Positions 17,822 to 47,250 of a stretch of DNA of 64,000 bases are shown piece by piece (the stretch's first letter is position 1; each line of letters starts with the position of its first letter). The notes beneath the pieces are model-generated. The model worked only from the letters and a program-made list of their open reading frames with translations. It was not told where the DNA came from and searched no databases. This DNA is from Patescibacteria group bacterium (lineage in GTDB: Bacteria; Patescibacteriota; Minisyncoccia; Phycocordibacterales; JAKAEA01). The position numbers and the translations under genes are program-made. Location of the stretch: the NCBI GenBank assembly GCA_040387855.1, contig JAZKCY010000001.1:381857-445856 (forward strand), read 5' to 3'.

Positions 17822-18475
17822 ATGGGTATTTCAGAAATTAAAAAAATAGTAGCACTGACAACAATCCTTTCAGTTGCATCGGTTGGATTGTATGTTGCAG
17901 CTGAACCACAGATTTCAAGCGCACAGGCAACTGCAGATGATACTGTTATTATTACACTTAACGTTGATGCGGGTATCTCTATCACAAGTCCTGCAGACTC
18001 TTCAATGAGTACAAACTTGGGTGTTTCTGTAAATAAGGCTATTGCTACAACCACTTGGAATGTTAAAACTAATAACAATCTTGGATATACTCTTGCTGTA
18101 AAAGCATCTCAGGATCCTGCAATGCAGTCAGCTGGTGATGAAGTGTTAGATTACACTGAATCTGTAGGAGGTACACCTGAGACATGGTCTGTAGGTGCAA
18201 GTACCGCAGAATTCGGATATTCAGCATTCGGAACCGATGTTCCAACTGGTACATGGGGAACAGGCTCACAGTGTTCTTCAACTGTTAATGCAAACTCAAC
18301 TACTCTTAAGTACGTAGGTTTTAGTACATCTGATAAAACTATTGCAACACGATCTTCAACTACAACTCCTTCTGGCATTGATTCTACAGTATGCTATGCT
18401 GTAGAACAAAATGGTTTCTATATTCCATCTGGAACATATACAGCTACCATTACAGCAACTGCGACCACCCTCTAA
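17822..18475 (+). CDS. Secreted Ser/Thr-rich surface protein, WxL-domain-like
   Basis: Signal peptide. TTWNVKTNNNLGYTLAVKAS resembles the first WxL motif. Clear paralog of 19491..20237. Confidence 0.5.
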   Translation: MGISEIKKIVALTTILSVASVGLYVAAEPQISSAQATADDTVIITLNVDAGISITSPADSSMSTNLGVSVNKAIATTTWNVKTNNNLGYTLAVKASQDPAMQSAGDEVLDYTESVGGTPETWSVGASTAEFGYSAFGTDVPTGTWGTGSQCSSTVNANSTTLKYVGFSTSDKTIATRSSTTTPSGIDSTVCYAVEQNGFYIPSGTYTATITATATTL

Positions 18476-18498
18476 TTTAACTTGGTTACATAAATAAA

Positions 18499-19482: not shown

Positions 19483-19490
19483 TTTAAGCT

Positions 19491-20237: not shown

Positions 20238-20238
20238 T

Positions 20239-26688: not shown

Positions 26689-26698
26689 AAATACTGCT

Positions 26699-27460
26699 AT
26701 GATAATTTCCGAACTGAAAGATTTATTAAAAAATATTGTACGATGGGCATTTGCATTCATAGCTTTGTCTACTTTTTTCTTTCTATTTTCTACACAAACG
26801 GTGACGATAAAAGGCAGGGAAGTGCCAGTGCCTTGGATGACTGATTCATCATATACGATTCAGTTTTTTGATACATTACAGCGTACATTGATACCAAGTG
26901 AAGTAGATCTTATTGTTACAAATCCATTCGATGCTTTTTTTATAGAGGTTAAATTATCTTTATTTTTAGCCTTTATTGTATTGTCGCCTTTTCTTTTGTG
27001 GGGAATACTACGATACCTTTCGCCAGCATTAAAACAGTCAGAAAGAAAATCATTATATAAAGTTGTATTACCATCTACTATTTTGTTTTTTAGCGGATGT
27101 CTATTTGCATATGCATACATTATTCCTTCTACGATAAAAATAATGTATGCACATGCGCCCAATATCAAAGCAATTCAGTACTTCAATGTTAATGATTTTA
27201 TTTCATTAGCACTCATGATGATGGTTGCTACGGGAATAATGTTTGTTCTTCCTGTGTGCATGGTTATCTCAAGTTATCTTGGGATAGTTAACCCCGTTAT
27301 TTGGAAACAGTATTGGCGCCAGGCAATTTTTGGATGTCTGTTAGTTACAGCAGTAATCACACCCGATGGTAGTGGAATTACCATGGCAATGCTTGCGATT
27401 CCACTCTGTTTACTCTATATAGTAGGCCTTTTTATCAGCTGGCGGTATAAAACTAGTTAG
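26699..27460 (+). CDS. tatC: Twin-arginine translocase subunit TatC
   Basis: Six TM helices with a TatC-like pattern (LSPFLLWGILRYLSPAL, ILFFSGCLFAYAYIIP). ATG at 26699 sits 11 nt after the giant gene's stop. Confidence 0.75.
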   Translation: MIISELKDLLKNIVRWAFAFIALSTFFFLFSTQTVTIKGREVPVPWMTDSSYTIQFFDTLQRTLIPSEVDLIVTNPFDAFFIEVKLSLFLAFIVLSPFLLWGILRYLSPALKQSERKSLYKVVLPSTILFFSGCLFAYAYIIPSTIKIMYAHAPNIKAIQYFNVNDFISLALMMMVATGIMFVLPVCMVISSYLGIVNPVIWKQYWRQAIFGCLLVTAVITPDGSGITMAMLAIPLCLLYIVGLFISWRYKTS

Positions 27461-27504
27461 TATATACTTATAGATAAGTAAAGCTTATAAATTATATAAA
27501 ATCT

Positions 27505-27711
27505 ATGTTTGGATTAGGCGTACCAGAACTCATAATTATAGTATTAGCGTTTGGATTACTCTTTTTTGGTAGTAGTAAAATATCTGAATTTTCACGAAGT
27601 CTGGGAAGAATGTCTGGAGAATATAAAAAGAGCAAGCGTGAGATTGAAAAAGAAATTGAGGAAAGTGAACTAAAAACAACTGATCAGAAAAAAACTGATA
27701 CAACTAGTTAG
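27505..27711 (+). CDS. tatA: Twin-arginine translocase subunit TatA/E
   Basis: MFGLGVPELIIIVLAFGLLFFGSSKISEFSRSLGR is the canonical TatA N-terminus. Confidence 0.85.
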   Translation: MFGLGVPELIIIVLAFGLLFFGSSKISEFSRSLGRMSGEYKKSKREIEKEIEESELKTTDQKKTDTTS

Positions 27712-27725
27712 TTCTAATTTGGTAT

Positions 27726-27986
27726 ATGGCAGTACATCACAAACATACGGCTTCAGAAGAAGTACAAAAAAAGACACGTCGAAACATGATCAAACTTGCA
27801 CTTTTTGGAGGTGCTGCTTTTGTACTTGGGAAAGTATTTAATTCTGTTACTGAACATTTCTCAGATAAAGTAATACGTAATGTAGATTTTCAGAATTTCA
27901 ATTTTCAAGAATCAGAAAAAAAACTCACTATATCTGAAAAAGATGGTGAGCCACTGCTTATCATCGAAAAAGATTCATTTAAATAA
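27726..27986 (+). CDS. Small protein (86 aa) with a twin-arginine (Tat) signal peptide
   Basis: KKTRRNMIKLALFGGAAFVLG fits S/T-R-R-x-hydrophobic-hydrophobic-K plus an h-region. The gene lies immediately downstream of tatA. Confidence 0.5.
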   Translation: MAVHHKHTASEEVQKKTRRNMIKLALFGGAAFVLGKVFNSVTEHFSDKVIRNVDFQNFNFQESEKKLTISEKDGEPLLIIEKDSFK

Positions 27987-28001: not shown

Positions 28002-29540
28002 ATGACGGACACTGAATTACAGGCACAAGCAGCACATGCACAAGGTTTAGCATACTTAGAAAAAGGTATGTTTGGTGAGGCACTATTTCATCTAAAAAAA
28101 GCAATTACATTAGTCCCTAATTATTTAGAAGCACACAACACTTTGGGGCGAGCCTATAATGAAACAGGTGACTTCGAGTTGTCTATACAAACATGTCTCC
28201 ATATACTAAGTCAAAATCCACAGGCATATTTTGTGTTACAAAATATTGCTAAATCGTATGGAGAAATGGGACGACACGCTGAAGCACTGTCGTATTATTA
28301 CAGGTATATCGCTCTTAGTCCTACTGCGGCTACAGCCTACAGTGACCTTTTTTTAACACTAAATTATCTACCAATGTCGCGTGAAGCAATGTTTGTAGAA
28401 CATTATAAGTTTCATATATTTGATAAAAATAATACAAATAGTAACTATCTGTATCAGAAAAATATTCATGATAGTAGTAAAAGAAAAATCAAAGTTGGTT
28501 ATGTTTCAGGGGATTTAAGAGAGCATCCTGTAGCGCATCTTTTTGTTCCTGTTATAAAAAATCATGACAGATCAAAATTCAATATTCATATCTATAATAA
28601 TACGCATAGTCAAGATGATGTTACCAAGAAAATAAAGAATTATGGTGATACCTGGCGCGATATACAAGCACTTTCGCATGAAGATACACTAGAACTCATT
28701 AGGTCAGATAATTTAGATATTCTTGTGGATTTATCTGGACATACTGGCAGTAATAGACTTTTGATTTTTGCAGCTCGGGCTGCTCCAATACAGGTAGCGT
28801 GGTTGGGATATATGAATACTACGGGTCTTAAAAATATGGATTATAGAATTACAGATTTTAATTTGTCAGTACCTGATTCTGAAAAATACTATACTGAAAA
28901 GTTATGGCGAGTTACAAATTCTTTTACGTTCGATCCACTTATGGAGTTGCCTGATATCGATGATTTACCAGCTTTAAAAAATGGGTTTATAACATTTGCC
29001 TCATTAAATAATTATAAAAAGATTACTTCTCATGTTTATGATGTATGGGCAGATATTTTAAGAAAGATACCAACATCACGCTTGGTATTTTCGCTCAAGG
29101 GTAATGACACGCTTAAACAGTCGGTACTTACAAAATTTGAACTAAGAGGTATTAGTTCAGATCGAATTAAAATAATTGATCAAAAATTGATTGAAGATTA
29201 TGTGAAATTTTTCAATGATATAGATATATTATTAGATCCATTTCCATTTACAGGGTGTATTACTGTATTTCATGGTCTGTGGGGTGGAGTGCCATCTATC
29301 GTTATGGAAGGAGTAACAGAATATGAGCGTAACGGTCCAACTGTTATGAAAAAAGTTGGATTAGATTCATGTATTGCACATAATCCTCAAGAATATGTAG
29401 ATATCGCAGTTTATTGGGCAAGTCATTTTGATGAATTGGCTGAATTGCGTAAAAAAATGCGTGAAAAGTTCCCTAAAAATGAGGATAAACTAGTAACAAA
29501 AGGCATTGAAGACGCATTTATAAAAATGTATAATAGATAG
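28002..29540 (+). CDS. TPR-repeat protein fused to a GT41 (O-GlcNAc-transferase-like) glycosyltransferase domain
   Basis: N-terminal TPRs. The C-terminal KIKVGYVSGDLREHPVAHLFVPV...NIHIYN block matches the OGT/GT41 catalytic-domain signature (LRVGYVSSDF.NHPTSHLM). Confidence 0.65.
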   Translation: MTDTELQAQAAHAQGLAYLEKGMFGEALFHLKKAITLVPNYLEAHNTLGRAYNETGDFELSIQTCLHILSQNPQAYFVLQNIAKSYGEMGRHAEALSYYYRYIALSPTAATAYSDLFLTLNYLPMSREAMFVEHYKFHIFDKNNTNSNYLYQKNIHDSSKRKIKVGYVSGDLREHPVAHLFVPVIKNHDRSKFNIHIYNNTHSQDDVTKKIKNYGDTWRDIQALSHEDTLELIRSDNLDILVDLSGHTGSNRLLIFAARAAPIQVAWLGYMNTTGLKNMDYRITDFNLSVPDSEKYYTEKLWRVTNSFTFDPLMELPDIDDLPALKNGFITFASLNNYKKITSHVYDVWADILRKIPTSRLVFSLKGNDTLKQSVLTKFELRGISSDRIKIIDQKLIEDYVKFFNDIDILLDPFPFTGCITVFHGLWGGVPSIVMEGVTEYERNGPTVMKKVGLDSCIAHNPQEYVDIAVYWASHFDELAELRKKMREKFPKNEDKLVTKGIEDAFIKMYNR

Positions 29541-29545
29541 TATCT

Positions 29546-29938
29546 ATGGCTATAAATGTATCGCGTAATCGAATTGACTTTAATGATATTCGTGCGGAGT
29601 CTGCTGAATTTAGAGACAGTGCAGAAAGTGTAAATGCAATTGGTAGTGCGTCAGGTGCTGAGGCAATTGATTATTCACTGGGCAATGTCGTAACAGCAAC
29701 AACAACTGGTGCAACTGTCTGGTCTGTGACAAATCCACCTGCATCAGGAAAAGCTGGGAGTTTTACCCTTATTCTTACAAACGGCGGTAGCCAGACTCAA
29801 ACATGGATGAGTGGTACAAAATGGCCAAGTGGAGCAGCGCCAACACTTACTTCGTCAGGGATAGATATACTTACCTTTTTTACGGTTGATGCTGGTACTA
29901 CATGGTATGGAGTGTTGGCAATGAGTGCTATGGCTTAA
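29546..29938 (+). CDS. Hypothetical Thr/Gly-rich protein
   Basis: 130-aa ORF, tightly spaced within the operon. No domain recognised. Confidence 0.35.
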   Translation: MAINVSRNRIDFNDIRAESAEFRDSAESVNAIGSASGAEAIDYSLGNVVTATTTGATVWSVTNPPASGKAGSFTLILTNGGSQTQTWMSGTKWPSGAAPTLTSSGIDILTFFTVDAGTTWYGVLAMSAMA

Positions 29939-29979
29939 TATTTTTTGATTATTGCACTATGTTTGGACTAGGAGCAAAA

Positions 29980-32900
29980 ATGAGAGCAATTCAACAAACG
30001 GTTGTAGCTATTATTGATAATAGTTATCTTTTTGGTTGGGGGAAAAATACTTCCGGTCAAATTGGTAATAGCTCATTAACGAGTCAATCAAGTCCTGTTG
30101 GTCTAGGTACAACTTCTGATTGGAAAATGCTCTCTGGAGCATACACATTTTCGGCGGGAATCAAGACAAATGGGACACTATGGACATGGGGCGCTGGGAT
30201 ATTCGGAACTTTGGGGGATAATACAGATTCAGTTGCAAAATCAAGTCCAATTCAAGTTGGAACACTCAGTGATTGGGATACTGTTAGTACAGCAAAATTT
30301 CATGCTTTAGCTCGTAAAACAAATGGAACGATCTGGGGATGGGGGTTTAATGGTGGTGGTCAACTTGGCCAAAATAATATTACAGATAGATCAAGCCCAG
30401 TTCAGATTGGGACTTTAGGTACTTGGACCCATATTTTTACCGGTGGTCAAATATCAGGTGCGCGAAAAAGTGATGGAACACTGTGGTCATGGGGCCGAAA
30501 CACCTATGGGGCACTTGGAATCAATGCTGCAGGAGATAGATCAAGTCCTATTCAAATTGGAACTTTGACAACATGGGATCATATGTCTTTCGGATACCGA
30601 ACTGGATTGGCAAGAAAAACCGATGGTACCATTTGGGGATGGGGCAATAACAATCTTGGACAAATTGGTAACAGTACGGTTGTTAACAGATCAAGCCCTG
30701 GACAAATCGGTACTCTTACAACCTGGAGTAGTATTCATGCAGGGAACTTACATGGTATAGGCCGAAGGTCAGATGGTACATTGTGGGGTTGGGGTTGGGC
30801 TGGAAAAGTTGGAGATAATACTGCAACCAATAAATCAAGTCCAGTACAAATTGGAACATTAAGCTCATGGCTACATGTCGCTACTGGTTATGACCACACA
30901 CTGGCAAAAAGATCAGATGGAACTATTTGGAGTTGGGGATATGCTACATACGGTCGTTTGGGGGATAATGCCACTACTGATAGATCGAGTCCTGTGCAAA
31001 TTGGAACACTAACAGAATGGGATTCCATTTTTGCAGGGAGCAGTTCTCATTCTTCGTTTGCTTTAAAAAGATATAATCTAGGTATGTTTGCATGGGGAGT
31101 AGGTTCCCTCGGTCAAATAGGAAATAATGATGTAAGTCAACAAGATAGTCCGTTACAAGTGGGTACACTCACTTCATGGGAGGGTGTAGCTGTTGGTGCT
31201 AGTACCGTGCATGCATGGAAATCAGATGGAACACTGTGGACATGGGGTAGAAACTCATACGGTCGTTTGGGAGATAACACAACCACGAACAGATCAAGTC
31301 CAGTCCAAATTGGTACCCTTAATGTATGGAAAATGGCAGCTTCAGGTACAGGCCACTCAAGTGCTGTAAGAACTAACGGAACATTGTGGTCATGGGGATC
31401 TGGTGCAAACGGAGAAATGGGAGATAACACAGCAATTTCTAAATCAAGTCCAGTACAAGTAGGAACACTCTCAATTTGGGCAGAAACGTCCGCAGGAAGT
31501 ACATTCACCGTTGCGCGTCGAACAAATAATACTATTTGGTCATGGGGTAGTAACTTGTATGGTCGTTTGGGTCAAAGCACTACTACAAATAGATCTAGTC
31601 CAGTGCAAATTGGAACATTAAGTAACTGGTCTGGTATTTCTGCAGGAGGCCAACATGCACTAGGAATAAAAACTGACGGTGGTATTTGGGCATGGGGTCT
31701 GAACACCTCTGGACAAATGGGAGATAATACTGCTGTTACAAAATCAAGTCCTGTTCGTATTGGGACTCTTACAAACTGGAAAGGTATTTCAGCGGGTGCA
31801 TCTCACAATGTTGCGTGGAAAACTGACGGATCATTATGGGCATGGGGAATAAATACAAACGGAAGATTGGGAGATAATACTACTACAACCAGATCAAGTC
31901 CTGTGCGTATTGGGACTTTATCTGATTGGGCTTCAGCTTCTGCCCAACTAGAGCATACTATTGCTCGAAAGACAGACGGTACGCTATGGGCCTGGGGAAA
32001 GGGAGACTATGGTCAGCTTGGAGATGGAATTGCACGACTTAAGAACACACCACTTCAAATCGGTACGCTAACAAACTGGGGAACTGTATCTATGGGAGCC
32101 TCACACACCGTTGCATGGAAAACAAATAATACTATTTGGGGATGGGGAATTGGGGGCCAAGTGGGAGACAATACCGCTGTTACAAGATCAAGCCCCGTAC
32201 AAATTGGAACGCTATCTACATGGCAATCTATTGATACTGGTGATTCACATACTGTAGCTATAAAGACTGACGGTACAATGTGGGCATGGGGAGCAAACAC
32301 GTCAGGCCAAGTAGGAGACAATACGAATGTTACAAAATCAAGTCCTGTACAGATTGGAACTTTAAACACATGGGCAAGTGTGTCGGCTGGAAATATTCAC
32401 TCTATTGCTCGAAAAACAGATAGTAGTATTTGGTCATGGGGACTTGGAAGTGTGGGTGCACTTGGAGATAATACAGCCACTACCAAATCAAGCCCGGTAC
32501 GAATTGGTACACTTAATACCTGGGCAAGTGTGACTGCTGGTGGAAACCACTCTCATGCAATAAAAGCTGATGGATCATTGTGGTCATGGGGTTACAATTT
32601 TTATGGGCAATTAGGCGATAGTTCAAATGTGGCTAAATCAAGTCCTGTTCGAGTTGGTACGCTCAATGATTGGTCAATTGTATCAGCAGGAATTCAGCAT
32701 TCATTAGCAATCAAAACAAACGGGACATTGTGGGCATGGGGATTTGGAACTTCCGGACAGCTTGGAGATAATACGGGTGGAACCTTCTCAAGTCCAATTC
32801 AAATTGGTACGCTCACTACTTGGGCTGGGGTGTCTGCAGGTGCAGAACACTCTCTTGGATGGAAAGCTGATGGAACTTTGTGGGCCTGGGGCTACAATGC

Positions 32901-33174
32901 ATCCGGACAATTGGGAGACGGTACATTTACTCAATATCTTAGTCCTATTCAAGTTGGTACGGTTTCTACATGGAGTACTGCTTCAGCTGGACCAAACCAC
33001 AGTGGTGCTGTGAGAGCCGATGGGACATTATGGATGTGGGGAACTCGTCTTAATGGTAGAATCGGAGATAACAACATGCCGGGTAAATCGAGCCCAATTA
33101 AAATAGGTACCATGAACGATTGGCGTACATTGGGTAACGGTCCAAATGGACTGATGAGTATTTCAATTAAATAA
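29980..33174 (+). CDS. RCC1/BLIP-II-type beta-propeller repeat protein (about 20 repeats), no signal peptide
   Basis: About 50-aa repeats (GTLWxWGxNxxGQLGDNTxxxxSSPVQIGTLxxW) occur at regular intervals. ATG at 29980 is preceded by AGGAG. The track's longer version starts at 29902. Confidence 0.7.
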   Translation: MRAIQQTVVAIIDNSYLFGWGKNTSGQIGNSSLTSQSSPVGLGTTSDWKMLSGAYTFSAGIKTNGTLWTWGAGIFGTLGDNTDSVAKSSPIQVGTLSDWDTVSTAKFHALARKTNGTIWGWGFNGGGQLGQNNITDRSSPVQIGTLGTWTHIFTGGQISGARKSDGTLWSWGRNTYGALGINAAGDRSSPIQIGTLTTWDHMSFGYRTGLARKTDGTIWGWGNNNLGQIGNSTVVNRSSPGQIGTLTTWSSIHAGNLHGIGRRSDGTLWGWGWAGKVGDNTATNKSSPVQIGTLSSWLHVATGYDHTLAKRSDGTIWSWGYATYGRLGDNATTDRSSPVQIGTLTEWDSIFAGSSSHSSFALKRYNLGMFAWGVGSLGQIGNNDVSQQDSPLQVGTLTSWEGVAVGASTVHAWKSDGTLWTWGRNSYGRLGDNTTTNRSSPVQIGTLNVWKMAASGTGHSSAVRTNGTLWSWGSGANGEMGDNTAISKSSPVQVGTLSIWAETSAGSTFTVARRTNNTIWSWGSNLYGRLGQSTTTNRSSPVQIGTLSNWSGISAGGQHALGIKTDGGIWAWGLNTSGQMGDNTAVTKSSPVRIGTLTNWKGISAGASHNVAWKTDGSLWAWGINTNGRLGDNTTTTRSSPVRIGTLSDWASASAQLEHTIARKTDGTLWAWGKGDYGQLGDGIARLKNTPLQIGTLTNWGTVSMGASHTVAWKTNNTIWGWGIGGQVGDNTAVTRSSPVQIGTLSTWQSIDTGDSHTVAIKTDGTMWAWGANTSGQVGDNTNVTKSSPVQIGTLNTWASVSAGNIHSIARKTDSSIWSWGLGSVGALGDNTATTKSSPVRIGTLNTWASVTAGGNHSHAIKADGSLWSWGYNFYGQLGDSSNVAKSSPVRVGTLNDWSIVSAGIQHSLAIKTNGTLWAWGFGTSGQLGDNTGGTFSSPIQIGTLTTWAGVSAGAEHSLGWKADGTLWAWGYNASGQLGDGTFTQYLSPIQVGTVSTWSTASAGPNHSGAVRADGTLWMWGTRLNGRIGDNNMPGKSSPIKIGTMNDWRTLGNGPNGLMSISIK

Positions 33175-33180
33175 TATTTT

Positions 33181-35124
33181 ATGGCAACCCTTACTGAAAT
33201 TCTAGAAATATCTGGAACATTAGAAAAAGCAGAAGAAATAGCTCGGCAATTAGTAGTGCAAGATCCAACATATATGTTGGATCTTCAGCTTATATTGAGC
33301 GCTCGTGGTAAAGTTGCAGAATCTAAAAAAATTATTGAAGATCTGAGTAATAAGTTTCCCAATGATCATAGAATAGCTTTCAACCAAGGATGGCACGTAT
33401 TGAATGAAGGTGATTTACAGCGGGGAATGGAACTCATAGATCGAGGAAGAAATGTGGGGGTATTTGGTTCACCCGCACTTCAAACAGATAAGCCCTTATG
33501 GGATGGGAAAAATGCCAAAGGAAAAACTATTTTACTTCGATGTGAAGGAGGATTGGGAGATGAAATTCTTAATATTCGTTTTGCTAAAGATATAGCAGAG
33601 AGAGGTGGAACAGTTATAGTAGCTTGTGATAAAGGTTTGCAAAGCGTGTTCTCTCGAGTTTCAGGCGTCGCCAAAACTATTTCTTTAGATCACATTCAAG
33701 ATGAGTACTTTGATGCATGGGTACCTGCTATGAGCGCTGTAAGAGTGTGTGGTCACACTTATGAAACACTTCCAAGTGAAGCTTATATTACTGCTTTACC
33801 AGAGAAAATTGCAGAATGGAATAAGACTGTTAATGCTGATAATGGAGTGTTGAAAGTTGGAATACGCTGGTCTGGCAATGCAGAATTTGAACATGAACAA
33901 ATGCGAAGATTCCCTTTCAAGCATATCTTGGATGTATTTGAAACTCCCAATGCTAAATTTTTTAGTTTACAACGTGATTCGGATTTGAAAGTGTTACCTC
34001 CTGAAGTTGTCGATTTAAGTGGTCTTATGAATACATGGGAAGATACAGCAGGAGTTATTGCAAACTTAGATTTAGTAATAACTTCATGTACAAGTGTTGC
34101 TCATATGGCGGCAGCAATGGGCAAAGAAACATGGATTATTGTTCCACTAATGCCATATTATACGTGGGCTATGCCTGGGAATAAAACTCCATGGTATAAA
34201 AGCGTGACGTTGTATAGACAAGAATCAGACACAAACTGGGAAGCCTCATTTATAAAGGTACGACAAGCATTAGAAGAATCGACAACTCAAGTAATACGTA
34301 CTAGTATTGATCCAATGCAAAATCACACAAAAAAGACGCTCCATTTCGTAGCAGGACTACCGCGTTCTGGTAGTACTATGCTCATTAGTTTGCTTGCCCA
34401 AAATCCTACTATTTTCGGTGCACCCGTTTCAGGTTTGGCTGGTATTGTAAACGGAGTAAATACTAATTGGGATAAAATAGAATTTCATAAGGAAGTTCCT
34501 AATGAAGAAGCAAAGATGTATACCTTGCGAGCTATTTTAGATAGCTATCATGCTGCAACATCTAAACCAATTATCCTAGATAAAGAGCGTCATTGGATTC
34601 GTTATATTTTATTGCTTGAAAAGTTATTAGACAGAAAAGTGAAAGTAATTGTTCCTGTTCGTCCTATTGCAGAAATACTCACTTCATTTGAAGTATTGCG
34701 ACAAAAGAATCCATTAACTCTCACAATGGTGGATGAAGTACTTGGTCCGAAATCTACATTATCTACACGTTGTGATTACTTTATGAATGAAGAAGGTCCT
34801 GTAGGGAGTTGTATCAATTATACTCGTGATGCTGTCATTTCCGGCTTGAGTGATCGTTTATTATTTGTGGATTACAATAAATTTATTGCTAATCCCGAGC
34901 GTGATCTAAAACGAATATATAGTTTCTTAGAAATCCCTTATTTTGAGCATGATTTGCATAACATAAAGCAGCTTACTATGAGTGATGATTCAATATGGAA
35001 GTATCCAGGATTACATGATGTTCGATCTGTCGTATCAAAAATCTCTGCTGATCCTATAAGTGTCCTTGGTCCTGAGCTTGTAGCAAAGTTTAGTCAGGGT
35101 GAACCATGGGAAAATTGGACATAA
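33181..35124 (+). CDS. Tri-partite enzyme: TPR-like N-terminus, GT9 (heptosyltransferase-like) glycosyltransferase, and a C-terminal sulfotransferase domain
   Basis: GT9 motifs KTILLRCEGGLGDEI and DLVITSCTSVAHMAAAMGKETWII. The C-terminus has a PAPS-binding-type LPRSGSTML P-loop (5'-PSB) and a downstream basic motif. Confidence 0.6.
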   Translation: MATLTEILEISGTLEKAEEIARQLVVQDPTYMLDLQLILSARGKVAESKKIIEDLSNKFPNDHRIAFNQGWHVLNEGDLQRGMELIDRGRNVGVFGSPALQTDKPLWDGKNAKGKTILLRCEGGLGDEILNIRFAKDIAERGGTVIVACDKGLQSVFSRVSGVAKTISLDHIQDEYFDAWVPAMSAVRVCGHTYETLPSEAYITALPEKIAEWNKTVNADNGVLKVGIRWSGNAEFEHEQMRRFPFKHILDVFETPNAKFFSLQRDSDLKVLPPEVVDLSGLMNTWEDTAGVIANLDLVITSCTSVAHMAAAMGKETWIIVPLMPYYTWAMPGNKTPWYKSVTLYRQESDTNWEASFIKVRQALEESTTQVIRTSIDPMQNHTKKTLHFVAGLPRSGSTMLISLLAQNPTIFGAPVSGLAGIVNGVNTNWDKIEFHKEVPNEEAKMYTLRAILDSYHAATSKPIILDKERHWIRYILLLEKLLDRKVKVIVPVRPIAEILTSFEVLRQKNPLTLTMVDEVLGPKSTLSTRCDYFMNEEGPVGSCINYTRDAVISGLSDRLLFVDYNKFIANPERDLKRIYSFLEIPYFEHDLHNIKQLTMSDDSIWKYPGLHDVRSVVSKISADPISVLGPELVAKFSQGEPWENWT

Positions 35125-35139
35125 TCCAATACGTTAAGT

Positions 35140-36459
35140 ATGAAACATTTCCATACAAATATTCAAGGATGGTTTTTTGCAGAATATTTTTTTGCTGACA
35201 TTGTTAAAAATGCACCTGATGGTGCGCATTTTGTTGAAGTTGGAAGTTGGAAAGGAAAGAGTGCTGTTTTTATGGCAGTTGAGATTGCCAACAGTGGAAA
35301 GCGAATAAAATTTGATTGTATTGACCATTGGAAGGGCTCGAAAGATACATACTTAGAAAACGAAGATCAAGCTGTTAAAGACGGTAATCTTTTTGAGGTT
35401 TTTAAAGAGAATATTGAGCCAGTACAAGAGTACATAAATGCTATCGATGGAGATAGCGCTGCTACAGCTTCACGTTATGCAGACGGATCTCTTGATTTTA
35501 TCTATATAGATGCTGCACATGATTATGAAAGCGTAAAAAGAGATATTAAGGCTTGGTTACCCAAATTAAAGTCAGATGGAGTCATTGCTGGGGATGATTT
35601 TACTGAAGCATTCCCTGGATTAGTTCAAGCTGTGCAAGAAATATTCCCTCAAGGATTATCAGTAATTCACCCTACATGGGTTGTGGATCGACGTACAATA
35701 AATTCAGAACAAGGATGTTCGATAATCTTTAGATGCCATACTGGTGATAATGTTCATGATGGAGTACGATTTGCTGGGGTAAGTAAAACAGAACTTGTTG
35801 TTAAGTGTTTTAAATCTATAGTGTCGGCAGCAGAAATTGTAAACCGTGATATTGAAATTGTGATTGTAGATGATCATTCAGAAAAGAAATGTATTGAAGC
35901 ACTTGAAGATGTGCTAACAACTTCACGACATCCACATAAAATAATTCATGTAACAGACACAGGTAATAAAGCATCGTTACGAGAATCATTCGAATATGCT
36001 CGTGATTATGGTAAAGAGCTTGTTTATTTTGTGGAGGATGATTATTTACACCTCCCTACATCATTACTGGAAATGATCGAGCAACAAACTGAGTTTAAAA
36101 ATAACTTAAACAATAAAGAAGTGGCATTTTATCCCGTTGATTATCCAGATCGATATCAACCTCAAGGAATATATCAATCAATGATAGTTCTTGGCAAACA
36201 CCGTCACTGGAGAACTACTCGACACTCAACACTTACTTTTTTTTCTTCTCGGAAAGCAGTTTTTGAATATTGGGAATTATTTGAAAAAATGTGGCAAGGG
36301 GAGGGTAATTTTGTAGATGAAGATCAAACGGTAAATAAACTGTGGGGTCCAGATATTCAGCTCTTTTCTCCAATTCCAACACTCGCTATTCATATGCAAT
36401 TCGAAGAACACAAACCTCCTTTTGTTGATTGGCAAAAGTATTGGGATGCTATACAGTAA
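35140..36459 (+). CDS. Fusion: class I SAM-dependent methyltransferase (Methyltransf_24/TylF-MycF/CmcI-like) plus GT-A-fold glycosyltransferase domain
   Basis: The N-terminus has VEVGSWKGKSAVFMA and DFIYIDAAHDYESV. The C-terminal ~250 aa (IVIVDDHS...YFVEDDYLH...HW(R)T...LAIHM) is paralogous to 37046..37816 and 37813..38580. Confidence 0.6.
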   Translation: MKHFHTNIQGWFFAEYFFADIVKNAPDGAHFVEVGSWKGKSAVFMAVEIANSGKRIKFDCIDHWKGSKDTYLENEDQAVKDGNLFEVFKENIEPVQEYINAIDGDSAATASRYADGSLDFIYIDAAHDYESVKRDIKAWLPKLKSDGVIAGDDFTEAFPGLVQAVQEIFPQGLSVIHPTWVVDRRTINSEQGCSIIFRCHTGDNVHDGVRFAGVSKTELVVKCFKSIVSAAEIVNRDIEIVIVDDHSEKKCIEALEDVLTTSRHPHKIIHVTDTGNKASLRESFEYARDYGKELVYFVEDDYLHLPTSLLEMIEQQTEFKNNLNNKEVAFYPVDYPDRYQPQGIYQSMIVLGKHRHWRTTRHSTLTFFSSRKAVFEYWELFEKMWQGEGNFVDEDQTVNKLWGPDIQLFSPIPTLAIHMQFEEHKPPFVDWQKYWDAIQ

Positions 36460-36463
36460 CACT

Positions 36464-37033
36464 ATGAAATTAAATCTTGGCTGTGGCTTCAATAAACTGG
36501 ATGGATATATAAATGTAGATAATTCGGCTGTATGTAAGCCTGATCAGGTGTTTGATATAGAATCGACCCCATGGCCTTGGCAAGATAGTTCGATTGACGA
36601 GATCAGATTAGATCATGTTTTGGAGCACATTGGTGTGGACCCAAAAACATATATTTCAGTATGGAAAGAAATATGGCGCGTATCAAAACCCAATGCTCAG
36701 ATTTTTATTCGAGTTCCACACTGGAGGCATGAAAACTTTGCACATGATCCTACACATGTACGTCCTATTACTCCTGTTGGTATTGCCATGTTTGATCAGC
36801 TACGTAACAGGGAAGACGAAAAGCGTGGAGGTCAAGAAACAAAGCTTGGACTTATGTATGCAATAGATGTTGCTATAGAACGTGTTGAATATGTGTTTGT
36901 CCCCGAAATACAGCAAGCTTTAGAAAAGAAATTTATATCTCAAGAAAAAGCTTCTTCACTTATGGAACATGAAAATAATGTATGTCAGGAAATTAAAATC
37001 GGTGTGCGAGTTATGAAGCCTTGTCGAGGCTAG
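36464..37033 (+). CDS. Class I SAM-dependent methyltransferase (Methyltransf_11-like)
   Basis: MKLNLGCGFNKLDGYINVD is the glycine-rich SAM-binding motif I. Confidence 0.6.
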   Translation: MKLNLGCGFNKLDGYINVDNSAVCKPDQVFDIESTPWPWQDSSIDEIRLDHVLEHIGVDPKTYISVWKEIWRVSKPNAQIFIRVPHWRHENFAHDPTHVRPITPVGIAMFDQLRNREDEKRGGQETKLGLMYAIDVAIERVEYVFVPEIQQALEKKFISQEKASSLMEHENNVCQEIKIGVRVMKPCRG

Positions 37034-37045
37034 CATCGATAAACT

Positions 37046-37816
37046 ATGAAATTAGATATTATTTTACGGACACATTCTTTAGGTAATGTGCATCCAGAAA
37101 AAAGAGTAATGACGGATTCTAAGGAAGAAATGCTTATTAAATGTGTTTTTTCTTTAATAAAATCAATAGATACTATCAAAGGTGCTCATGATATAAAGCT
37201 AGCAATAATAGATGATCACTCTTCTGAATTATGTATGCAGAAGCTTAAAAAAATGGTGAGTGATCTTAAATATCCCTATATATTAATACATCTTGAAGAT
37301 ACGGGAAATAATGCTTCTTTAAAAAAGTGTTATGAATATGCGCATGATAATGCGCGTGATGTTATTTATTTTGTAGAGGATGATTATCTACATAATCCGA
37401 GCGCTCTAGTAGAGATGATTGAATCATATGAGCTGTTCCAATCCAATTTAGGGGGAACAGATATCGCATTATTGCCGTATGATGATCCCGATAATTATAA
37501 ACCAGGTTGGATTCATCCCAGCCGAATAGTATTGAGCAAAAATCGCTATTGGAGAACAAATACAATTACAAATGGTACCTTCATGATATCAAAGAAAGTA
37601 CTATTGGATTTTTGGGATACATTTATGGCATTTACTCAATATGGTACAGGTTTGAAGTCTAATGAATCTGCAACAATAAATAAAATTTGGAGTGAGTCTG
37701 TTCGCCTTTTTACTCCTATGCCAAGCTTGGCAATTCATATGCATCATACATTGAGAATGTCTCCATTTATTGATTGGAAAAGTTTGTGGGATTCAATGGA
37801 TACATCACATTTATGA
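37046..37816 (+). CDS. GT-A-fold glycosyltransferase (DXD = EDDY), tandem paralog 2
   Basis: MKLDIILRTHS...IIDDHS...YFVEDDYLH...RYWRTN...LAIHMH. Its TGA overlaps the next gene's start (ATGA). Confidence 0.55.
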   Translation: MKLDIILRTHSLGNVHPEKRVMTDSKEEMLIKCVFSLIKSIDTIKGAHDIKLAIIDDHSSELCMQKLKKMVSDLKYPYILIHLEDTGNNASLKKCYEYAHDNARDVIYFVEDDYLHNPSALVEMIESYELFQSNLGGTDIALLPYDDPDNYKPGWIHPSRIVLSKNRYWRTNTITNGTFMISKKVLLDFWDTFMAFTQYGTGLKSNESATINKIWSESVRLFTPMPSLAIHMHHTLRMSPFIDWKSLWDSMDTSHL

Positions 37817-38580
37817 AATTAGATATTATTTTACGAACTCATTCTACAGGTAACTTGCGACCAGGCACACGTTTTCTACAAGTACCAAAAGAACAGTTGG
37901 TTTTAACATGTACCACTTCACTCATAAATTCTGCGAATCTCGTTTCGCCAGATGACCACGAAATAAAAATAGTAATAGTAGATGATCACTCAACAGAATC
38001 ATGCGTTGCTGGCTTGAAAAGAATTTTAGCAACTTCAAAACATCCAACACAACTAATTCAGATAGAACAACCGGGGCATGCTGCATCGCTTATGGCTTGC
38101 TATGAATATGGTAGAGATCATGCTCGAGATGTTATCTATTTTATTGAAGATGATTACCTTCACTTTCCGTCTGCGATCTCTGAAATGATTGAAATGTACG
38201 ATTGGGTAAAGGCTAGCCTGGGTGATAAAGAAGTTGCGCTCTTAGCAAATGATGATCCTGATAGTTATCGTAATCCTTGGATGGAACCAGCAAGGATTGT
38301 ATTAGGTAAGTATCGTCATTGGAGAACAAACTTGTTTTCTACTAGCTCATTTTGGTTTTCAAAAAAAACACTGCTTAAGTATTGGGACATTTATATGCGG
38401 CATACACATTACGGGGAACATGAAGTGATTCATGAGGGTACGACTGTCGATAGAGTATGGCGACATTCTGTTCAATTGTTTACTCCAATACCATCATTAG
38501 CTGTTCATATGGAATACACAGACAATATTGCTCCATTTGTTTATTGGGAAGGCCTGTGGAAAAGTATTATAGTGCCGTAG
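37813..38580 (+). CDS. GT-A-fold glycosyltransferase (DXD = EDDY), tandem paralog 3
   Basis: MKLDIILRTHSTGN...IVIVDDHS...YFIEDDYLH...RHWRTN...LAVHME. Confidence 0.55.
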   Translation: MKLDIILRTHSTGNLRPGTRFLQVPKEQLVLTCTTSLINSANLVSPDDHEIKIVIVDDHSTESCVAGLKRILATSKHPTQLIQIEQPGHAASLMACYEYGRDHARDVIYFIEDDYLHFPSAISEMIEMYDWVKASLGDKEVALLANDDPDSYRNPWMEPARIVLGKYRHWRTNLFSTSSFWFSKKTLLKYWDIYMRHTHYGEHEVIHEGTTVDRVWRHSVQLFTPIPSLAVHMEYTDNIAPFVYWEGLWKSIIVP

Positions 38581-38615: not shown

Positions 38616-39641
38616 ATGAAAAAACTACTAAATTTTGTTAAATATAATAACTTCTTTTCTCTCGGAGTTATGTTTCTGTTACTTGGAACTGGAGTGACTT
38701 TTGCTGCGAGTCCTACCGCACGTGATGCAATAGTTTTAAAAAATGAATCTGTTGTATCTATTGATAATACCTATATTATTAGTGTAAATTTAAATGCATT
38801 TAACCCAAATCTAAAGATTACTACAATTACTGAAGATGCAGTTAATTACAATGTAGGGTACAGCTACGATACAATTGATCTTATTGATGATATCTGGCAG
38901 CGTGCTACATTACAAAAAACGTTGGTAGTGTCTAAAGAAGCATTGCAAGGTAAAGATCTTGGATTATTTGTATCTGAGCAATTAAGTCAGATGGTAGATA
39001 GTCATTTGGCATATCTTAAAAATGTACAAAAGATAGAAATAACTAAAGGTGCTACACAAAAAATTGTTGCTACTGAATATTCCGGCCTTCTTGGAAGTGT
39101 ATTGAGTTCACAGGAAAAAGTATTCAATGGATATGTTCCTGTGATTCCTCCAGAAAATAAAGATGAAGAAAAGACAGAGACACTTGCTGTGAATGAAGAA
39201 CCAGAATCAGAACGATCAAAATCAATCGGAGCTGCAGAACGAGCTGCTATTCAACAGCAGAAAGATGAGGAAGCTCGACGACAATCTGAAGAAGCTAGAA
39301 TTAGAGATGAAGTGAATCGAATGCTTGAAGAACAAAATAAACCACAAGAAGAAGTTCCAGCTGAAACTGAAGAGCCAGCTCAACCAGTTGGATCTGCAAG
39401 TGGTAGTGAGTCAGAAATAGAAACTCCAACCCCGGAACCCACACCAACTCCGGAGCCTATACCAGAACCTGAACCAACTCCGACCCCAGAGCCAACTCCA
39501 ACACCGGAACCAGAACCCACACCAACCCCAGAACCTCAGCCTGAGCCAACACCGACTCCAGAACCAACTCCTACACCTGAGCCAGCACCAGAGGCCGAAG
39601 AGCCAGTTACAACCCCATCAGAACCTGCTCCTGATCAATAA
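38616..39641 (+). CDS. Secreted protein with a charged coiled-coil segment and a C-terminal (P-T/E-P) repeat tract
   Basis: Signal peptide ends AAS. The C-terminus is (T/E)P(T/E)P repeats of about 80 aa. Confidence 0.55.
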   Translation: MKKLLNFVKYNNFFSLGVMFLLLGTGVTFAASPTARDAIVLKNESVVSIDNTYIISVNLNAFNPNLKITTITEDAVNYNVGYSYDTIDLIDDIWQRATLQKTLVVSKEALQGKDLGLFVSEQLSQMVDSHLAYLKNVQKIEITKGATQKIVATEYSGLLGSVLSSQEKVFNGYVPVIPPENKDEEKTETLAVNEEPESERSKSIGAAERAAIQQQKDEEARRQSEEARIRDEVNRMLEEQNKPQEEVPAETEEPAQPVGSASGSESEIETPTPEPTPTPEPIPEPEPTPTPEPTPTPEPEPTPTPEPQPEPTPTPEPTPTPEPAPEAEEPVTTPSEPAPDQ

Positions 39642-40973: not shown

Positions 40974-42041
40974 ATGTTCAAAAATTTCCGACAAAGACTT
41001 ACAAAAATGTTTAGCAATGAGATCGGCATCGATCTTGGAACTGCTAATACATTGGTCTATTTACGTGGTCGTGGAATTGTAATTAATGAACCATCAGTAG
41101 TTGCAATCAATCAGAAGACAGGAACTGTAGTTGCAATTGGAACACAAGCAAAAGATATGCTTGGACGTACTCCTCAGCATATTATCGCAGTAAAACCGCT
41201 TGTAGACGGAGTTATATCAGATTTTGAGGTGACAGAAGAAATGATTACCTATCTACTAAACAAAGCGCAGAAAGATACAAAAAAGTTTCTCGGTCCAAAA
41301 GTAGTGGTGGGTGTGCCATCAGGAATTACCAATGTTGAGACACGAGCAGTTCGAGATGCTACAAAAAACGCAGGAGCTAGAGAAGTATATATAGTTGAAG
41401 AGCCTATGGCCGCTGCTGTTGGTATTCGCTTGCCTGTAATGGAACCAGTTGGAAATATGATTATTGATATTGGTGGTGGAACAACCGATATTGCCGTTAT
41501 ATCACTTGGTGGTGTTGTTGTTTCAAAAAATCTAAAAATAGCAGGTGATAAGCTTAATGCAGATATCACTACCTATATCCGAAGTGAATTTAAAATTTTA
41601 ATTGGTGAAAAGACTGCAGAGCAAATTAAAATTACAATTGGCGCAGTATTGCCGGGAGAAACTCCCATGGAATCTATAATTAAGGGAAGAGATCTCGTTA
41701 CTGGTTTGCCACGTGAAGTAGTTATTACAGATGCTGATATCCGAGAAGCAACATCTCAATCTATAGAGACATTGCTTGAAGCTTCAAAAGAAGTTCTTGA
41801 AACTACACCTCCAGAAATTATTGCTGATGTCATGCACCGAGGGATTTACCTTACTGGTGGAGGGGCTCTTATAAAGGGACTTCATGTGTTACTTGCAGAC
41901 TTTCTGAAAATTCCTGTTCATGTGGCAGAGGATCCTCTTACTGCTGTTGCCCGTGGAACTGGTATTATTTTAGAAAATATACCAAAATATCAAGATATTT
42001 TGATTCAAAACGAAGATGATCTACCAGCCGCGAGATACTAA
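40974..42041 (+). CDS. mreB: Rod-shape protein MreB (paralog 2, in the mreBCD-mrdA operon)
   Basis: GIDLGTANTLVY. Full-length actin-fold. Confidence 0.9.
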   Translation: MFKNFRQRLTKMFSNEIGIDLGTANTLVYLRGRGIVINEPSVVAINQKTGTVVAIGTQAKDMLGRTPQHIIAVKPLVDGVISDFEVTEEMITYLLNKAQKDTKKFLGPKVVVGVPSGITNVETRAVRDATKNAGAREVYIVEEPMAAAVGIRLPVMEPVGNMIIDIGGGTTDIAVISLGGVVVSKNLKIAGDKLNADITTYIRSEFKILIGEKTAEQIKITIGAVLPGETPMESIIKGRDLVTGLPREVVITDADIREATSQSIETLLEASKEVLETTPPEIIADVMHRGIYLTGGGALIKGLHVLLADFLKIPVHVAEDPLTAVARGTGIILENIPKYQDILIQNEDDLPAARY

Positions 42042-45348: not shown

Positions 45349-47250
45349 ATGGCATCACTAGAAGAATTACGTGAAGCTCGGCTTCAAAAGCTAGAGCTTC
45401 TTAAAAAAGAGGGCATTAATCCATATCCTGCAAAAACAAAGCGTGATCATTCTATAGATCATGTTATTAGTAGTTTTGAAAATTTAGAGAAAGAACAAAC
45501 AACTATCACACTCGCAGGACGAGTAATGTCTATTCGAGCGCAAGGTGGATTGGTTTTCTTTAACTTATTTGACGGTACTGCAAAATTTCAAGGCTTACTA
45601 AAACAAGAAGAAGTAGATGCAAAAATCTATGATCTTTTTAATGCTGCAGTAGATATTGGAGACTTTGTAGAAGTAACCGGAACAGTATTTGTAACTAAGC
45701 GTGGAGAAAAAACACTCAGTGTTAAATCATGGGCAATGCTTTCAAAAACTATGTTGCCACTTCCAGAAAAATGGCATGGTCTACAGGATAATGATGAAAA
45801 GCTTCGTAAGCGATATTTAGATATTCTGTTTAATCCTGAACTTAAAGATCTTATAGAAAAGAAAGCAAAGTTTTGGCAATCAATGAGAAACTTTTTAATT
45901 ACTGAAGGTTTCTTAGAAGTTGAAACTCCAATTATAGAAAATACTACTGGAGGTGCAGATGCTCGACCTTTTGCTACTCACCACAATGCTTTAGATATTG
46001 ATGTATATCTTAGAATTTCAGCTGGTGAATTATGGCAAAAGAGATTAATGGTTGCTGGTTTTCCAAAAGTTTTTGAAATAGGACGAGTATTCCGAAATGA
46101 AGGAATGTCGCCAGAGCATGCTCAGGATTATACTCAGATGGAATTTTACTGGGGCTATGCTGATTATGAAAAAGGCATGGATTTAGTAGAGCGAATGTAC
46201 AAGTATGTAGCTCAGGAGACGTTTGGCAAACTTCAATTTAAAATTGGAGAATTTGATGTCGATTTAAACAAAACATGGGAACGATTTGATTATGCAGAAA
46301 CTATTAAGAAATTTACTGAAATAGATATTTCACAGGCTACTCTTCAAGAGATTGAAGAAAAATTAAGAGCACTTGAAATTAAATTTGATACTAATGGTTG
46401 GAACTTTTCTCGTGCAGTAGATATCCTTTGGAAATATTGTCGAAAGCAAATTAGTGGTCCTGGATTTCTAGTTAATGTACCAAAGTTTCTTTCACCACTT
46501 GCTAAGTCACATGAGGGAAATACAAATGTTGTACAGCAATTCCAGCCCCTCATTGCAGGTAGTGAGCTTGGGAAGGGTTATAGTGAGCTTAATGACCCAA
46601 TAGATCAAGCAGAACGATTTTTGGAGCAAGAGAAGCTACGTTTAGATGGTGATGAAGAAGCACAAATGAATGATACCGACTTTGTTGAGGCTCTTGAGCA
46701 TGGTATGCCTCCTACATGTGGGTTCGGAATTAGTGAGCGGTTATTCTCATATCTTGCAAATAAGCCTATTCGAGAAACTCAGATTTTCCCATTGATGAAA
46801 CCACTTCAAGAAGGTGGAGCAAAAAAGAAAGAAGCAAAAGTTGCGGTAGCTCTTATTAATAAGGGAGCAAACCTTGTAGGCTGGCAGGAAAAAAATGCTA
46901 TAGCTCATCTTACTGCAGCATTTGGCGCACGAAGAGGAAAAGAACTATTTAAATTTAATTCTGTAGCAACTTCGGATGATCAAAAGATTAATTTAAATAT
47001 TCAGCATGCTATCTTAATTAAAGATGCAGACTCATCTGATGCATTGTATAATGTATCTCACGTAGCAAAATCACAGGGACTCGAAGTTTCTGAATTTACC
47101 CGTGAAATGCTTGAGACAACCAACGATAAAAAGGTTGCTGAAAATACAAAGTCGAAACCTGTAAAAGATATAGAATTCCTTGGAGTTCTTGTCTTTGGGT
47201 ATAAATCAGAAGTTGACGAATTAACAAAACAGTTTAAACTTTCAGAATAA
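45349..47250 (+). CDS. lysS: Lysyl-tRNA synthetase (class II) with a ~150-aa C-terminal extension
   Basis: OB-fold N-domain and class II motifs 1-3 (FRNEG, GFGIGIDR-type). The canonical LysRS body ends near ...IFPLMKP (~aa 485). The remaining ~150 aa form an extra domain. Confidence 0.85.
   Translation: MASLEELREARLQKLELLKKEGINPYPAKTKRDHSIDHVISSFENLEKEQTTITLAGRVMSIRAQGGLVFFNLFDGTAKFQGLLKQEEVDAKIYDLFNAAVDIGDFVEVTGTVFVTKRGEKTLSVKSWAMLSKTMLPLPEKWHGLQDNDEKLRKRYLDILFNPELKDLIEKKAKFWQSMRNFLITEGFLEVETPIIENTTGGADARPFATHHNALDIDVYLRISAGELWQKRLMVAGFPKVFEIGRVFRNEGMSPEHAQDYTQMEFYWGYADYEKGMDLVERMYKYVAQETFGKLQFKIGEFDVDLNKTWERFDYAETIKKFTEIDISQATLQEIEEKLRALEIKFDTNGWNFSRAVDILWKYCRKQISGPGFLVNVPKFLSPLAKSHEGNTNVVQQFQPLIAGSELGKGYSELNDPIDQAERFLEQEKLRLDGDEEAQMNDTDFVEALEHGMPPTCGFGISERLFSYLANKPIRETQIFPLMKPLQEGGAKKKEAKVAVALINKGANLVGWQEKNAIAHLTAAFGARRGKELFKFNSVATSDDQKINLNIQHAILIKDADSSDALYNVSHVAKSQGLEVSEFTREMLETTNDKKVAENTKSKPVKDIEFLGVLVFGYKSEVDELTKQFKLSE

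Follow-up and report, generated by a model that had tools for sequence, protein, structure and literature searches.

Three tandem GT-A glycosyltransferase-like domains in a Patescibacteria genome form part of a conserved gene module common to phages

The window analysed here is a 64,000-nucleotide stretch of the genome of a Patescibacteria group bacterium (contig JAZKCY010000001.1, positions 381,857 to 445,856 of the forward strand). Its interval 35140-38580 contains four closely packed genes on the + strand, which encode three copies of one glycosyltransferase (GT) domain of the GT-A fold type together with two methyltransferases (MTs). The trio is part of a larger conserved module that is common to phages and was overlooked in an earlier, sequence-only reading of this DNA. 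The features of the interval are as follows (aa, amino acids).

35140..36459, + strand: MT::GT-A fusion protein of 439 aa, composed of an N-terminal methyltransferase domain and then GT-A copy 1
about 35188-35670 (aa ~17-177 of the fusion), + strand: methyltransferase domain, matching Methyltransf_24 at aa 32-154 (E 1.9e-23)
35710-36456 (aa 191-439 of the fusion), + strand: GT-A copy 1, matching Glycos_transf_2 (E 2.9e-7, 31.0 bits)
36464..37033, + strand: stand-alone class I methyltransferase of 189 aa, matching phrog_6636 (methyltransferase)
37046..37816, + strand: GT-A copy 2, 256 aa, matching Glycos_transf_2 (27.9 bits)
37813..38580, + strand: GT-A copy 3, 255 aa from its ATG, matching Glycos_transf_2 (37.5 bits)

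The three ~250-aa domains align over their full length with a single small gap region. The pairwise identities are 41%, 41% and 49%, the last between copies 2 and 3, and copy 1 matches copy 2 in BLASTP with an E-value of 4e-77, far above chance. The motifs IIxRxH, DDHS, YF(V/I)EDDYLH, (H/Y)WRT and LA(I/V)HM, quoted in the sequence-only reading as the mark of a thrice-repeated domain, are invariant in all three copies. The other features of its gene arrangement are found as well, namely the free-standing methyltransferase between copies 1 and 2 and the ATGA by which copy 3 overlaps copy 2, read at 37813-37816; the open reading frame (ORF) list starts copy 3 further upstream, at TTG 37774. In a crude neighbour-joining tree, copies 1 and 3 each have their closest sequence in a different Patescibacteria genome: copy 1 is nearest to another MT::GT-A fusion (locus L004), copy 3 clusters with sequences from L001 and L002, and copy 2 is placed beside the copy-3 group, together with the other L001 copy. 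Because the copies cluster with orthologues from elsewhere in the tree, they are, on this sequence evidence, old duplicates rather than recent ones. One copy is found in 140 loci, two in 10 and three in 4, and triplication also took place in phages (L151/L154) and in L050.

The sequence-only reading took the EDD(Y) motif as a sign of a GT-A fold, and this proposal agrees with both profile and structural evidence. All three copies exceed the gathering threshold of Pfam Glycos_transf_2 (PF00535; 23.3 bits), by a narrow margin. A precomputed PF00535 match is missing for about half of the homologues, some fused members fall under the cut-off, and the NCBIfam matches to GT2 enzymes, including PgfS, PglI and EpsD, are very weak. 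The AlphaFold2 model of copy 2, built from 51 homologues, is confident (predicted local distance difference test score, pLDDT, 94.1; predicted template modelling score 0.93) and has a Rossmann-like GT-A fold. Its best Foldseek matches in the PDB are all GT-A enzymes (SpsA, TarS, GnT-I, K4CP and TarP, with E-values of ~1e-7 to 1e-6). Among 274 PDB matches at E<=0.001, the 50 listed are nearly all GT-A proteins and the rest are nucleotide-sugar pyrophosphorylases of a related fold. When the profile of the 51 sequences is searched against the PDB, SpsA is the sole significant match (E 0.009); a profile of only the three copies had returned spurious YPD1 matches above SpsA, which the larger profile removed.

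The alignment of the 51-sequence profile with SpsA brings the family DDHS together with DDNS of SpsA, and the family EDD together with TDD. In SpsA these are the nucleotide-binding and metal-binding motifs. Across the 51 homologues 21 columns are invariant, including D56, D57, E111-D112-D113-Y-L-H, E207 and H231 (copy 2 numbering), and the DD, EDDYLH, E207 and H231 positions are retained in all three copies of the window. In the model D56/D57 end the strand 49-56 and EDD ends the strand 106-111. D56/D57 are thus predicted to bind the nucleotide and E111-D112-D113 to form the metal-binding DXD motif, in line with the DXD-type role first suggested for EDD. In inverting GT2 enzymes the base is a carboxylate some 90 residues past DXD. 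E207 lies in a loop 94 residues past D113, a region that the SpsA alignment stops short of; by position alone it is a candidate catalytic base, with the nearly invariant D146 as an alternative, and H231 is likewise a candidate metal ligand. Together, these data support the three domains as soluble, GT2-like GT-A glycosyltransferases, whose predicted activity would depend on metal and may follow an inverting mechanism.

SpsA of Bacillus subtilis (GT2; 1qg8, 1h7l) is the closest solved relative in architecture, being a soluble protein of ~255 aa with one GT-A domain, and it is the best Foldseek match (E 8e-8). The identity is only 12-13%, the template modelling (TM) score is about 0.55, and the root-mean-square deviation over the C-terminal half is high. 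Compared with SpsA, the family has its own conserved 16-residue insert between strand 1 and helix 1, which carries R20 and K26, and its own C-terminal motifs (H/Y)WRT and PxPxLAxHM. GnT-I/MGAT1 (GT13; 1fo8, 1foa) also matches at the level of the GT-A fold (E 6e-7), and the rabbit enzyme likewise uses an E-D-D form of the DXD motif. It is, however, a eukaryotic Golgi membrane enzyme acting on N-glycans and gives no sequence match in Pfam, NCBIfam or the PDB; the assignment of the family to GT13, which had only the fold (9-11% identity) and EDD in its favour, was rejected. No dedicated model for the family is present in Pfam, NCBIfam or PHROG, and no characterised member was found. The domain is therefore less unfamiliar than first described, in that it falls loosely inside GT2 and NCBI already labels a window protein 'glycosyltransferase family A protein', but it does form a distinct, uncharacterised subfamily, a marginal member of GT2 by fold and motifs.

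Both methyltransferases belong to recognisable groups. The N-terminal domain of the fusion has weaker TylF and Methyltransf_3 (O-methyltransferase) matches in addition to Methyltransf_24, which fits the sugar-O-methyltransferase class proposed for it earlier. Other Patescibacteria (P0008, L004) have the same MT::GT-A fusion, which also recurs in the phage protein A0A6J5KT09, with a TM-score of 0.93. The stand-alone enzyme has a weak Pfam match below threshold (Methyltransf_11, E 0.002). It most likely starts at ATG 36464, five bases past the stop of the fusion gene, rather than at TTG 36422. Its relatives adjoin GT-A genes in L001, L003, L016 and L027, it is 48-67% identical to same-family neighbours in other Patescibacteria, and it is 34% identical to a methyltransferase fused to a GT-B enzyme in the Synechococcus phage BUCT-ZZ01.

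Directly upstream of the trio, the window contains two GT-B enzymes with tetratricopeptide repeats (TPR), a sulfotransferase and an RCC1-repeat protein with a small partner, and a Pro/Thr-rich protein is encoded downstream.

28002..29540, + strand: TPR + GT41 protein O-glycosyltransferase of the SPINDLY/OGT type, 512 aa, matching Glyco_transf_41 (E 4.7e-46)
29546..29938, + strand: homologue of a tail-fibre C-terminal domain, 130 aa, matching phrog_7760 (E 4.6e-12) and phrog_9017 (E 3.1e-11), both 'tail fiber protein'
29902..33174, + strand: RCC1-repeat protein, the proposed acceptor, with 20 repeats (Pfam WD40_RLD/RCC1, E 5e-249)
33181..35124, + strand: TPR/GT9-like::sulfotransferase fusion of 647 aa, with TPR + GT-B at aa 1-~380 and a sulfotransferase of the 3'-phosphoadenosine 5'-phosphosulfate-dependent type at aa ~384-647
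38616..39641, + strand: Pro/Thr-rich signal-anchored protein, with a hydrophobic segment at aa 12-32 and a long C-terminal (TPEP)n tail

The GT41 protein matches Arabidopsis SPINDLY (7y4i, E 9e-84) and a bacterial OGT homologue (5djs, E 5.5e-78) in phmmer, and its homologues are also found in the clusters of L003 and L009. The TPR/GT9-like part of the fusion belongs to a family of >2,000 homologues without a Pfam domain. A single-sequence search against the PDB found nothing and a profile search found TPR proteins only, so that the fold search alone placed it. Its AlphaFold2 model (pLDDT 92.3) consists of three TPR repeats followed by a GT-B fold, and its best Foldseek matches are a GT9 enzyme (3tov), WaaF (1psw), WaaC, SPY/OGT and TibC (TibC at E 1e-5). 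The sulfotransferase part is recognised by Sulfotransfer_1 (E 3.5e-13) and Sulfotransfer_3 (E 1.5e-11) of Pfam. The TPR/GT9-like gene is the commonest neighbour of the GT-A family and is found beside it in 19 genome loci as well as in most phage loci described below.

The 20 RCC1 repeats correspond to roughly three beta-propellers, and each repeat contributes a Ser/Thr-rich loop of the 'TTTxRSSP' type (for example TTTNRSSP). The true start of the protein is probably an internal ATG at 29959 or 29980. A sequence scan detected no signal peptide and no hydrophobic segment in it, and the same absence of signal peptides and membrane segments holds for all eight proteins of 28002-38580. The 130-aa ORF is always paired with the RCC1 gene, with tandem pairs in L016 and L033, and in the phage contig L128 its homologue forms the C-terminus of a 637-aa tail fibre protein. 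Judged by sequence, the RCC1 protein and its 130-aa partner are homologues of a phage tail-fibre pair. Mass spectrometry has identified an RCC1-domain protein in virions of the jumbo phage GAP32 (PMC5259590). In one of the cultivated Patescibacteria, a pilus protein carries an RCC1 propeller that is a candidate adhesin (PMC12206443). The matches from a literature search for RCC1 in phages were dominated by Roscoff Culture Collection strain numbers. The PHROGs category of the phage RCC1 proteins, 'DNA, RNA and nucleotide metabolism', seems to have been transferred with the name of the family.

The block is conserved in place across distant Patescibacteria lineages, including L016 (Nomurabacteria), L033 and L039 (Saccharibacteria) and L030, and its genes are found clustered in loci of Saccharibacteria, Nomurabacteria, Adlerbacteria and Taylorbacteria. 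The shared order runs from a giant surface protein through TatC, a small twin-arginine protein, one or more pairs of 130-aa ORF and RCC1 gene, the GT9-like/sulfotransferase gene and the GT-A genes to the Pro/Thr-rich protein. In eight Patescibacteria loci the latter is retained, with the glycosylation block on one side and proS/mreB on the other; it has no family match in Pfam or PHROG, its membership of the module is uncertain, and it is an alternative acceptor candidate. Among the genes from TatC to proS there is no priming transferase, flippase/ABC exporter, polymerase or ligase. A prophage origin was considered and rejected, because the block holds the same position in distant Patescibacteria and its flanks are housekeeping genes (frr, a rseP-like gene and tatC upstream; proS, mreBCD and pbp2 downstream); the ORFs examined include neither a terminase nor a portal gene.

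The genes directly upstream of the glycosylation block, within 26696-27986, encode TatC, TatA (27505-27711) and an 86-aa protein (27726-27986) that has a TRRNMIK twin-arginine motif and a hydrophobic stretch. TatC and the small twin-arginine protein hold the same position in L016, L029, L033 and L039. Further upstream, 21622-26688 encodes a protein of 1688 aa with a signal peptide, in which a 'GIGTTSPYAKLSVAG' motif recurs and which has no Pfam match and only weak tail-fibre PHROG matches; its homologues precede TatC in L016, L033 and L039.

The phage side of the module was counted in the best 80 of 442 GT-A loci on IMG/VR viral contigs. In 73 of these 80 the TPR/GT9-like gene lies directly upstream of the GT-A gene on the same strand, at a distance of either a few bases or about 600-700 bp, the length of one methyltransferase gene. 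A giant RCC1 gene is present in 61 loci, a Methyltransf_24 gene in 35 and a homologue of the 130-aa ORF in 28. Of the 46 loci with at least 3 kb of sequence upstream of the GT9-like gene, 45 carry an RCC1 gene whose end is no more than 1.2 kb away from it. The order in phages is tail fibre, giant RCC1 protein, TPR/GT9-like GT-B, (methyltransferase), GT-A and tail-fibre assembly protein. The window carries this phage-type set plus the SPINDLY/OGT-type GT41 enzyme and the sulfotransferase. On L128, a tail fibre with several tail-fibre PHROG matches is followed by RCC1, GT9-like, methyltransferase, GT-A and tail-fibre assembly genes, and then by further genes, a large terminase, which shares 64% identity with its counterpart in Microcystis phage Mel-JY01, and a portal. 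Tail fibre, terminase and portal genes rule out that the viral contigs are misbinned bacterial DNA.

The isolated Synechococcus phage BUCT-ZZ01 (L160, ON615601, 6131-9996) encodes, in order, a tail fibre, an RCC1 protein and a GT9-like::methyltransferase fusion. Its tail fibre bears the same C-terminal domain as the 130-aa ORF of the window, and the protein annotated there as 'BNR repeat domain protein' (UTS52180.1) in reality consists of RCC1 repeats and has 43% identity to the RCC1 protein of the window. The adjacent 'hypothetical protein' of this phage is the TPR/GT9-like glycosyltransferase fused with the methyltransferase.

The GT-A family is discrete yet not rare. Searched against 1.84 billion representatives, its profile matches 230 clusters with an E-value cut-off of 1e-30, 621 with 1e-10 and 1552 with 0.001, and the size of the family is put at about 230-620 clusters (50% identity). 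Reference genomes contributed 400 loci, from Patescibacteria, slow-growing Mycobacterium, SAR11, cyanobacteria, Oligoflexales and others. Members are fused to Methyltransf_24, Methyltransf_11, GT8, GT1-like, GT4, GT2 and TPR domains, and such varied fusions fit a role within multi-step glycan assembly. In L032 (Rhodospirillaceae), RmlB-like, RmlC and rhamnosyl-O-methyltransferase-like genes adjoin the GT-A gene; these Rml-type genes in one locus hint at a 6-deoxyhexose donor such as rhamnose. In L053 (Bdellovibrio-like), CysD/CysN, for activated sulfate, adjoin the cluster.

In Mycobacterium shigaense (L078/L079; CP022927, AP018164) a cassette at 6625-12219 is located within the ESX-1 locus, between espB/espK and eccE/mycP, and contains Methyltransf_21, DUF6065, a GT-A member, GT9+DUF4254, GT9 and Sulfotransfer_3. 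These are the enzyme classes of the window in a quite different setting; a literature search on the neighbours DUF4254 and DUF6065 found nothing useful. SAR11 genomes have a single conserved copy in fixed housekeeping surroundings (L058 and about 17 other Pelagibacteraceae loci), next to rhodanese, DsbA, CutA, AhpC and ammonium transporter genes. No other glycosylation genes are near the SAR11 copy, and its surroundings gave no functional clue.

We propose that the block directs cytoplasmic O-glycosylation of the RCC1 protein, as a fibre or adhesin, and give this reading a probability of about 0.5. A TPR-bearing GT-B enzyme (the GT9-like one, GT41, or both) would put the first sugar on Ser/Thr, and the three GT-A enzymes would then lengthen the sugar chain. 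The two methyltransferases may O-methylate this chain and the sulfotransferase may sulfate it, as capping steps. The likeliest acceptor would be the RCC1 propeller, which is encoded just upstream of the GT9-like gene. The module has a protein-glycosylation character in several respects: the strong SPINDLY/OGT homologue, the TPRs of the GT9-like enzyme and its resemblance to heptosyltransferases that include the protein-directed TibC, the eight proteins free of signal peptides and membrane segments, the missing lipid-carrier genes between TatC and proS, and the RCC1 gene beside the GT9-like gene in 45 of the 46 phage loci. The sequence-only reading had associated the three copies with three successive sugar additions, which is a reasonable suggestion. 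The trio could also comprise a single catalytically relevant copy, the others being redundant or decaying, in keeping with the one-copy state of most loci. This is extremely unlikely, since the DD, EDDYLH, E207 and H231 positions are intact in every copy, identities of 41-49% show the duplications to be old, orthologues from other genomes join copies 1 and 3 in the tree, and independent triple arrays exist in phages L151/L154 and in L050.

Several observations weigh against the proposed glycosylation of the RCC1 protein. It is gene order alone that assigns the acceptor, and most of the phage loci represent one syntenic lineage, which makes their co-occurrence counts interdependent. In the bacterium, the RCC1 protein carries no recognisable export signal. 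The model of copy 2 superposes on solved GT-A structures with TM-scores of only ~0.5-0.55 at 10-17% identity, and donor and acceptor specificity is therefore unreadable from homology. In addition, BUCT-ZZ01 has the RCC1 and GT9-like genes without a GT-A gene, so that GT-A counts as an optional extending enzyme outside the module's core. Finally, the family is also found without an RCC1 gene, in Mycobacterium, SAR11 and cyanobacteria.

These GT-A loci without RCC1 would suit another protein acceptor, which in the window could be the Pro/Thr-rich protein, the 1688-aa surface protein or type IV pilins. The Pro/Thr-rich gene is kept directly downstream in the eight Patescibacteria loci, and its tail looks substrate-like, (TPEP)n tails being classic O-glycosylation substrates. 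We nevertheless consider this rather improbable: the Pro/Thr-rich and giant proteins are signal-bearing or anchored and would exit unfolded through Sec, away from the soluble cytoplasmic enzymes, and in the phage loci the giant protein is matched in 1 of 80 and the Pro/Thr-rich protein in 0 of 80, whereas the RCC1 gene is almost always there. A lipid- or wall-linked envelope polysaccharide or glycolipid, for example a methylated and sulfated surface glycan, would make the RCC1 adjacency coincidental. The closest solved structures (SpsA, TarS, TarP, K4CP) do act on polysaccharide or teichoic-acid acceptors, the weak NCBIfam matches (PgfS, PglI, EpsD) are compatible with such a product, the GT9/sulfotransferase/methyltransferase cassette of Mycobacterium recalls glycolipid tailoring, and the window has a separate membrane-type GT2 at 694-2118. 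We regard an envelope glycan as unlikely, though as the most probable of the alternatives, since no priming phosphoglycosyltransferase, flippase, polymerase or ligase is found in or beside the block and all its enzymes are soluble, the phage module is placed between tail fibre and tail-fibre assembly genes, and the TPR-GT-B and GT41 enzymes are protein-directed by architecture. The tail-fibre context in phages and the TPR domains point to a macromolecular acceptor and, with no polyketide synthase, nonribosomal peptide synthetase or terpene aglycone genes nearby, make a soluble small-molecule glycoside very unlikely; such a methylated or sulfated oligosaccharide, osmolyte or secondary metabolite would fit the weaker matches of the Methyltransf_24 domain to TylF-type natural-product sugar O-methyltransferases, and the lone SAR11 gene would suit a self-contained small-molecule reaction.

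Glycosylation of the RCC1 protein can be extended to a cellular role, at a low probability. Patescibacteria may have captured or inherited a phage tail-fibre module and may use the sugar-coated propeller as a host-attachment adhesin, which might be exported by the neighbouring, syntenic Tat system in its folded and glycosylated state and carried by the twin-arginine protein of 27726-27986. The Tat route is suggested because neither the RCC1 protein nor its partner has a signal peptide, and the link between Tat and the export of a signal-less RCC1 protein is speculation.

The proposed system has partial parallels among known ones. TibC/AAH and OGT/SPINDLY are likewise of the GT-B type, and in the cytoplasm they modify numerous recurring Ser/Thr positions on a folded protein built of repeats. 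They differ in adding a single sugar, without GT-A extenders, methyltransferases or a sulfotransferase, and their acceptors are a beta-helix adhesin or nucleocytoplasmic proteins instead of the RCC1 propeller proposed here. A064R of Chlorovirus PBCV-1 reportedly contains two rhamnosyltransferase domains and a methyltransferase domain and builds a capsid glycan, according to work by Speciale et al. It is likewise a viral, cytoplasmic, soluble GT/sugar-methyltransferase fusion that decorates a virion protein, comparable to the MT::GT-A fusion and A0A6J5KT09, but no sequence relationship was detectable, the domain order is reversed, and the virus infects eukaryotes. The module also resembles the methylation tailoring of rhamnose-containing glycans. 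Glycosyltransferases encoded by mycobacteriophages near structural genes modify virion proteins (Freeman et al. 2023, cited in PMC12582341). Here, by contrast, the linked structural gene encodes a tail-fibre-associated RCC1 protein, and other enzyme families occur, with sulfation. The glycosylation targets in the mycobacteriophage study are reportedly capsid and tail-tube subunits.

Other genes of the window lie outside the module. Four consecutive secreted proteins without Pfam families are encoded at 17822-21609, one with a weak fn3 match and two with a C-terminal membrane anchor, and may form a surface-structure operon. The protein of 12337-14091 has an N-terminal HTH_3 helix-turn-helix fused to an EPSP-synthase/MurA-type enzyme, that of 45349-47250 is a class II aminoacyl-tRNA synthetase (Asp/Asn/Lys type) with a C-terminal DUF2000 domain, and that of 58405-59973 combines a SKICH-like domain with a GDSL lipase/acylhydrolase domain. 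Two MreB genes are present (14377-15390 and 40974-42041), the second followed by mreC, mreD and pbp2.

The GT-A enzymes add a new and uncharacterised branch to a well-known superfamily, and the interest of the locus lies in the surrounding phage/Patescibacteria module. What sets it apart is the link to an RCC1 propeller, the pairing of two TPR/GT-B enzymes with as many as three proposed GT-A extenders, the predicted sulfation, and its occurrence in both phages and Patescibacteria. Among bacteria, sulfated glycans are uncommon, and we know of none from phage virions; nor, to our knowledge, has this conserved phage/Patescibacteria module been described. If the proposal is correct, a role would be assigned to two sizeable enzyme families without a characterised member, GT-A and TPR/GT9-like. 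Should the Tat-exported adhesin prove true, it would represent a new route for making and exporting a glycoprotein adhesin, and the phage counterpart a new class of glycosylated receptor-binding protein. Patescibacteria live attached to other microbes; an RCC1 fibre whose glycan coat is methylated and sulfated would provide a testable host-recognition candidate both in these bacteria and in a large group of freshwater phages.

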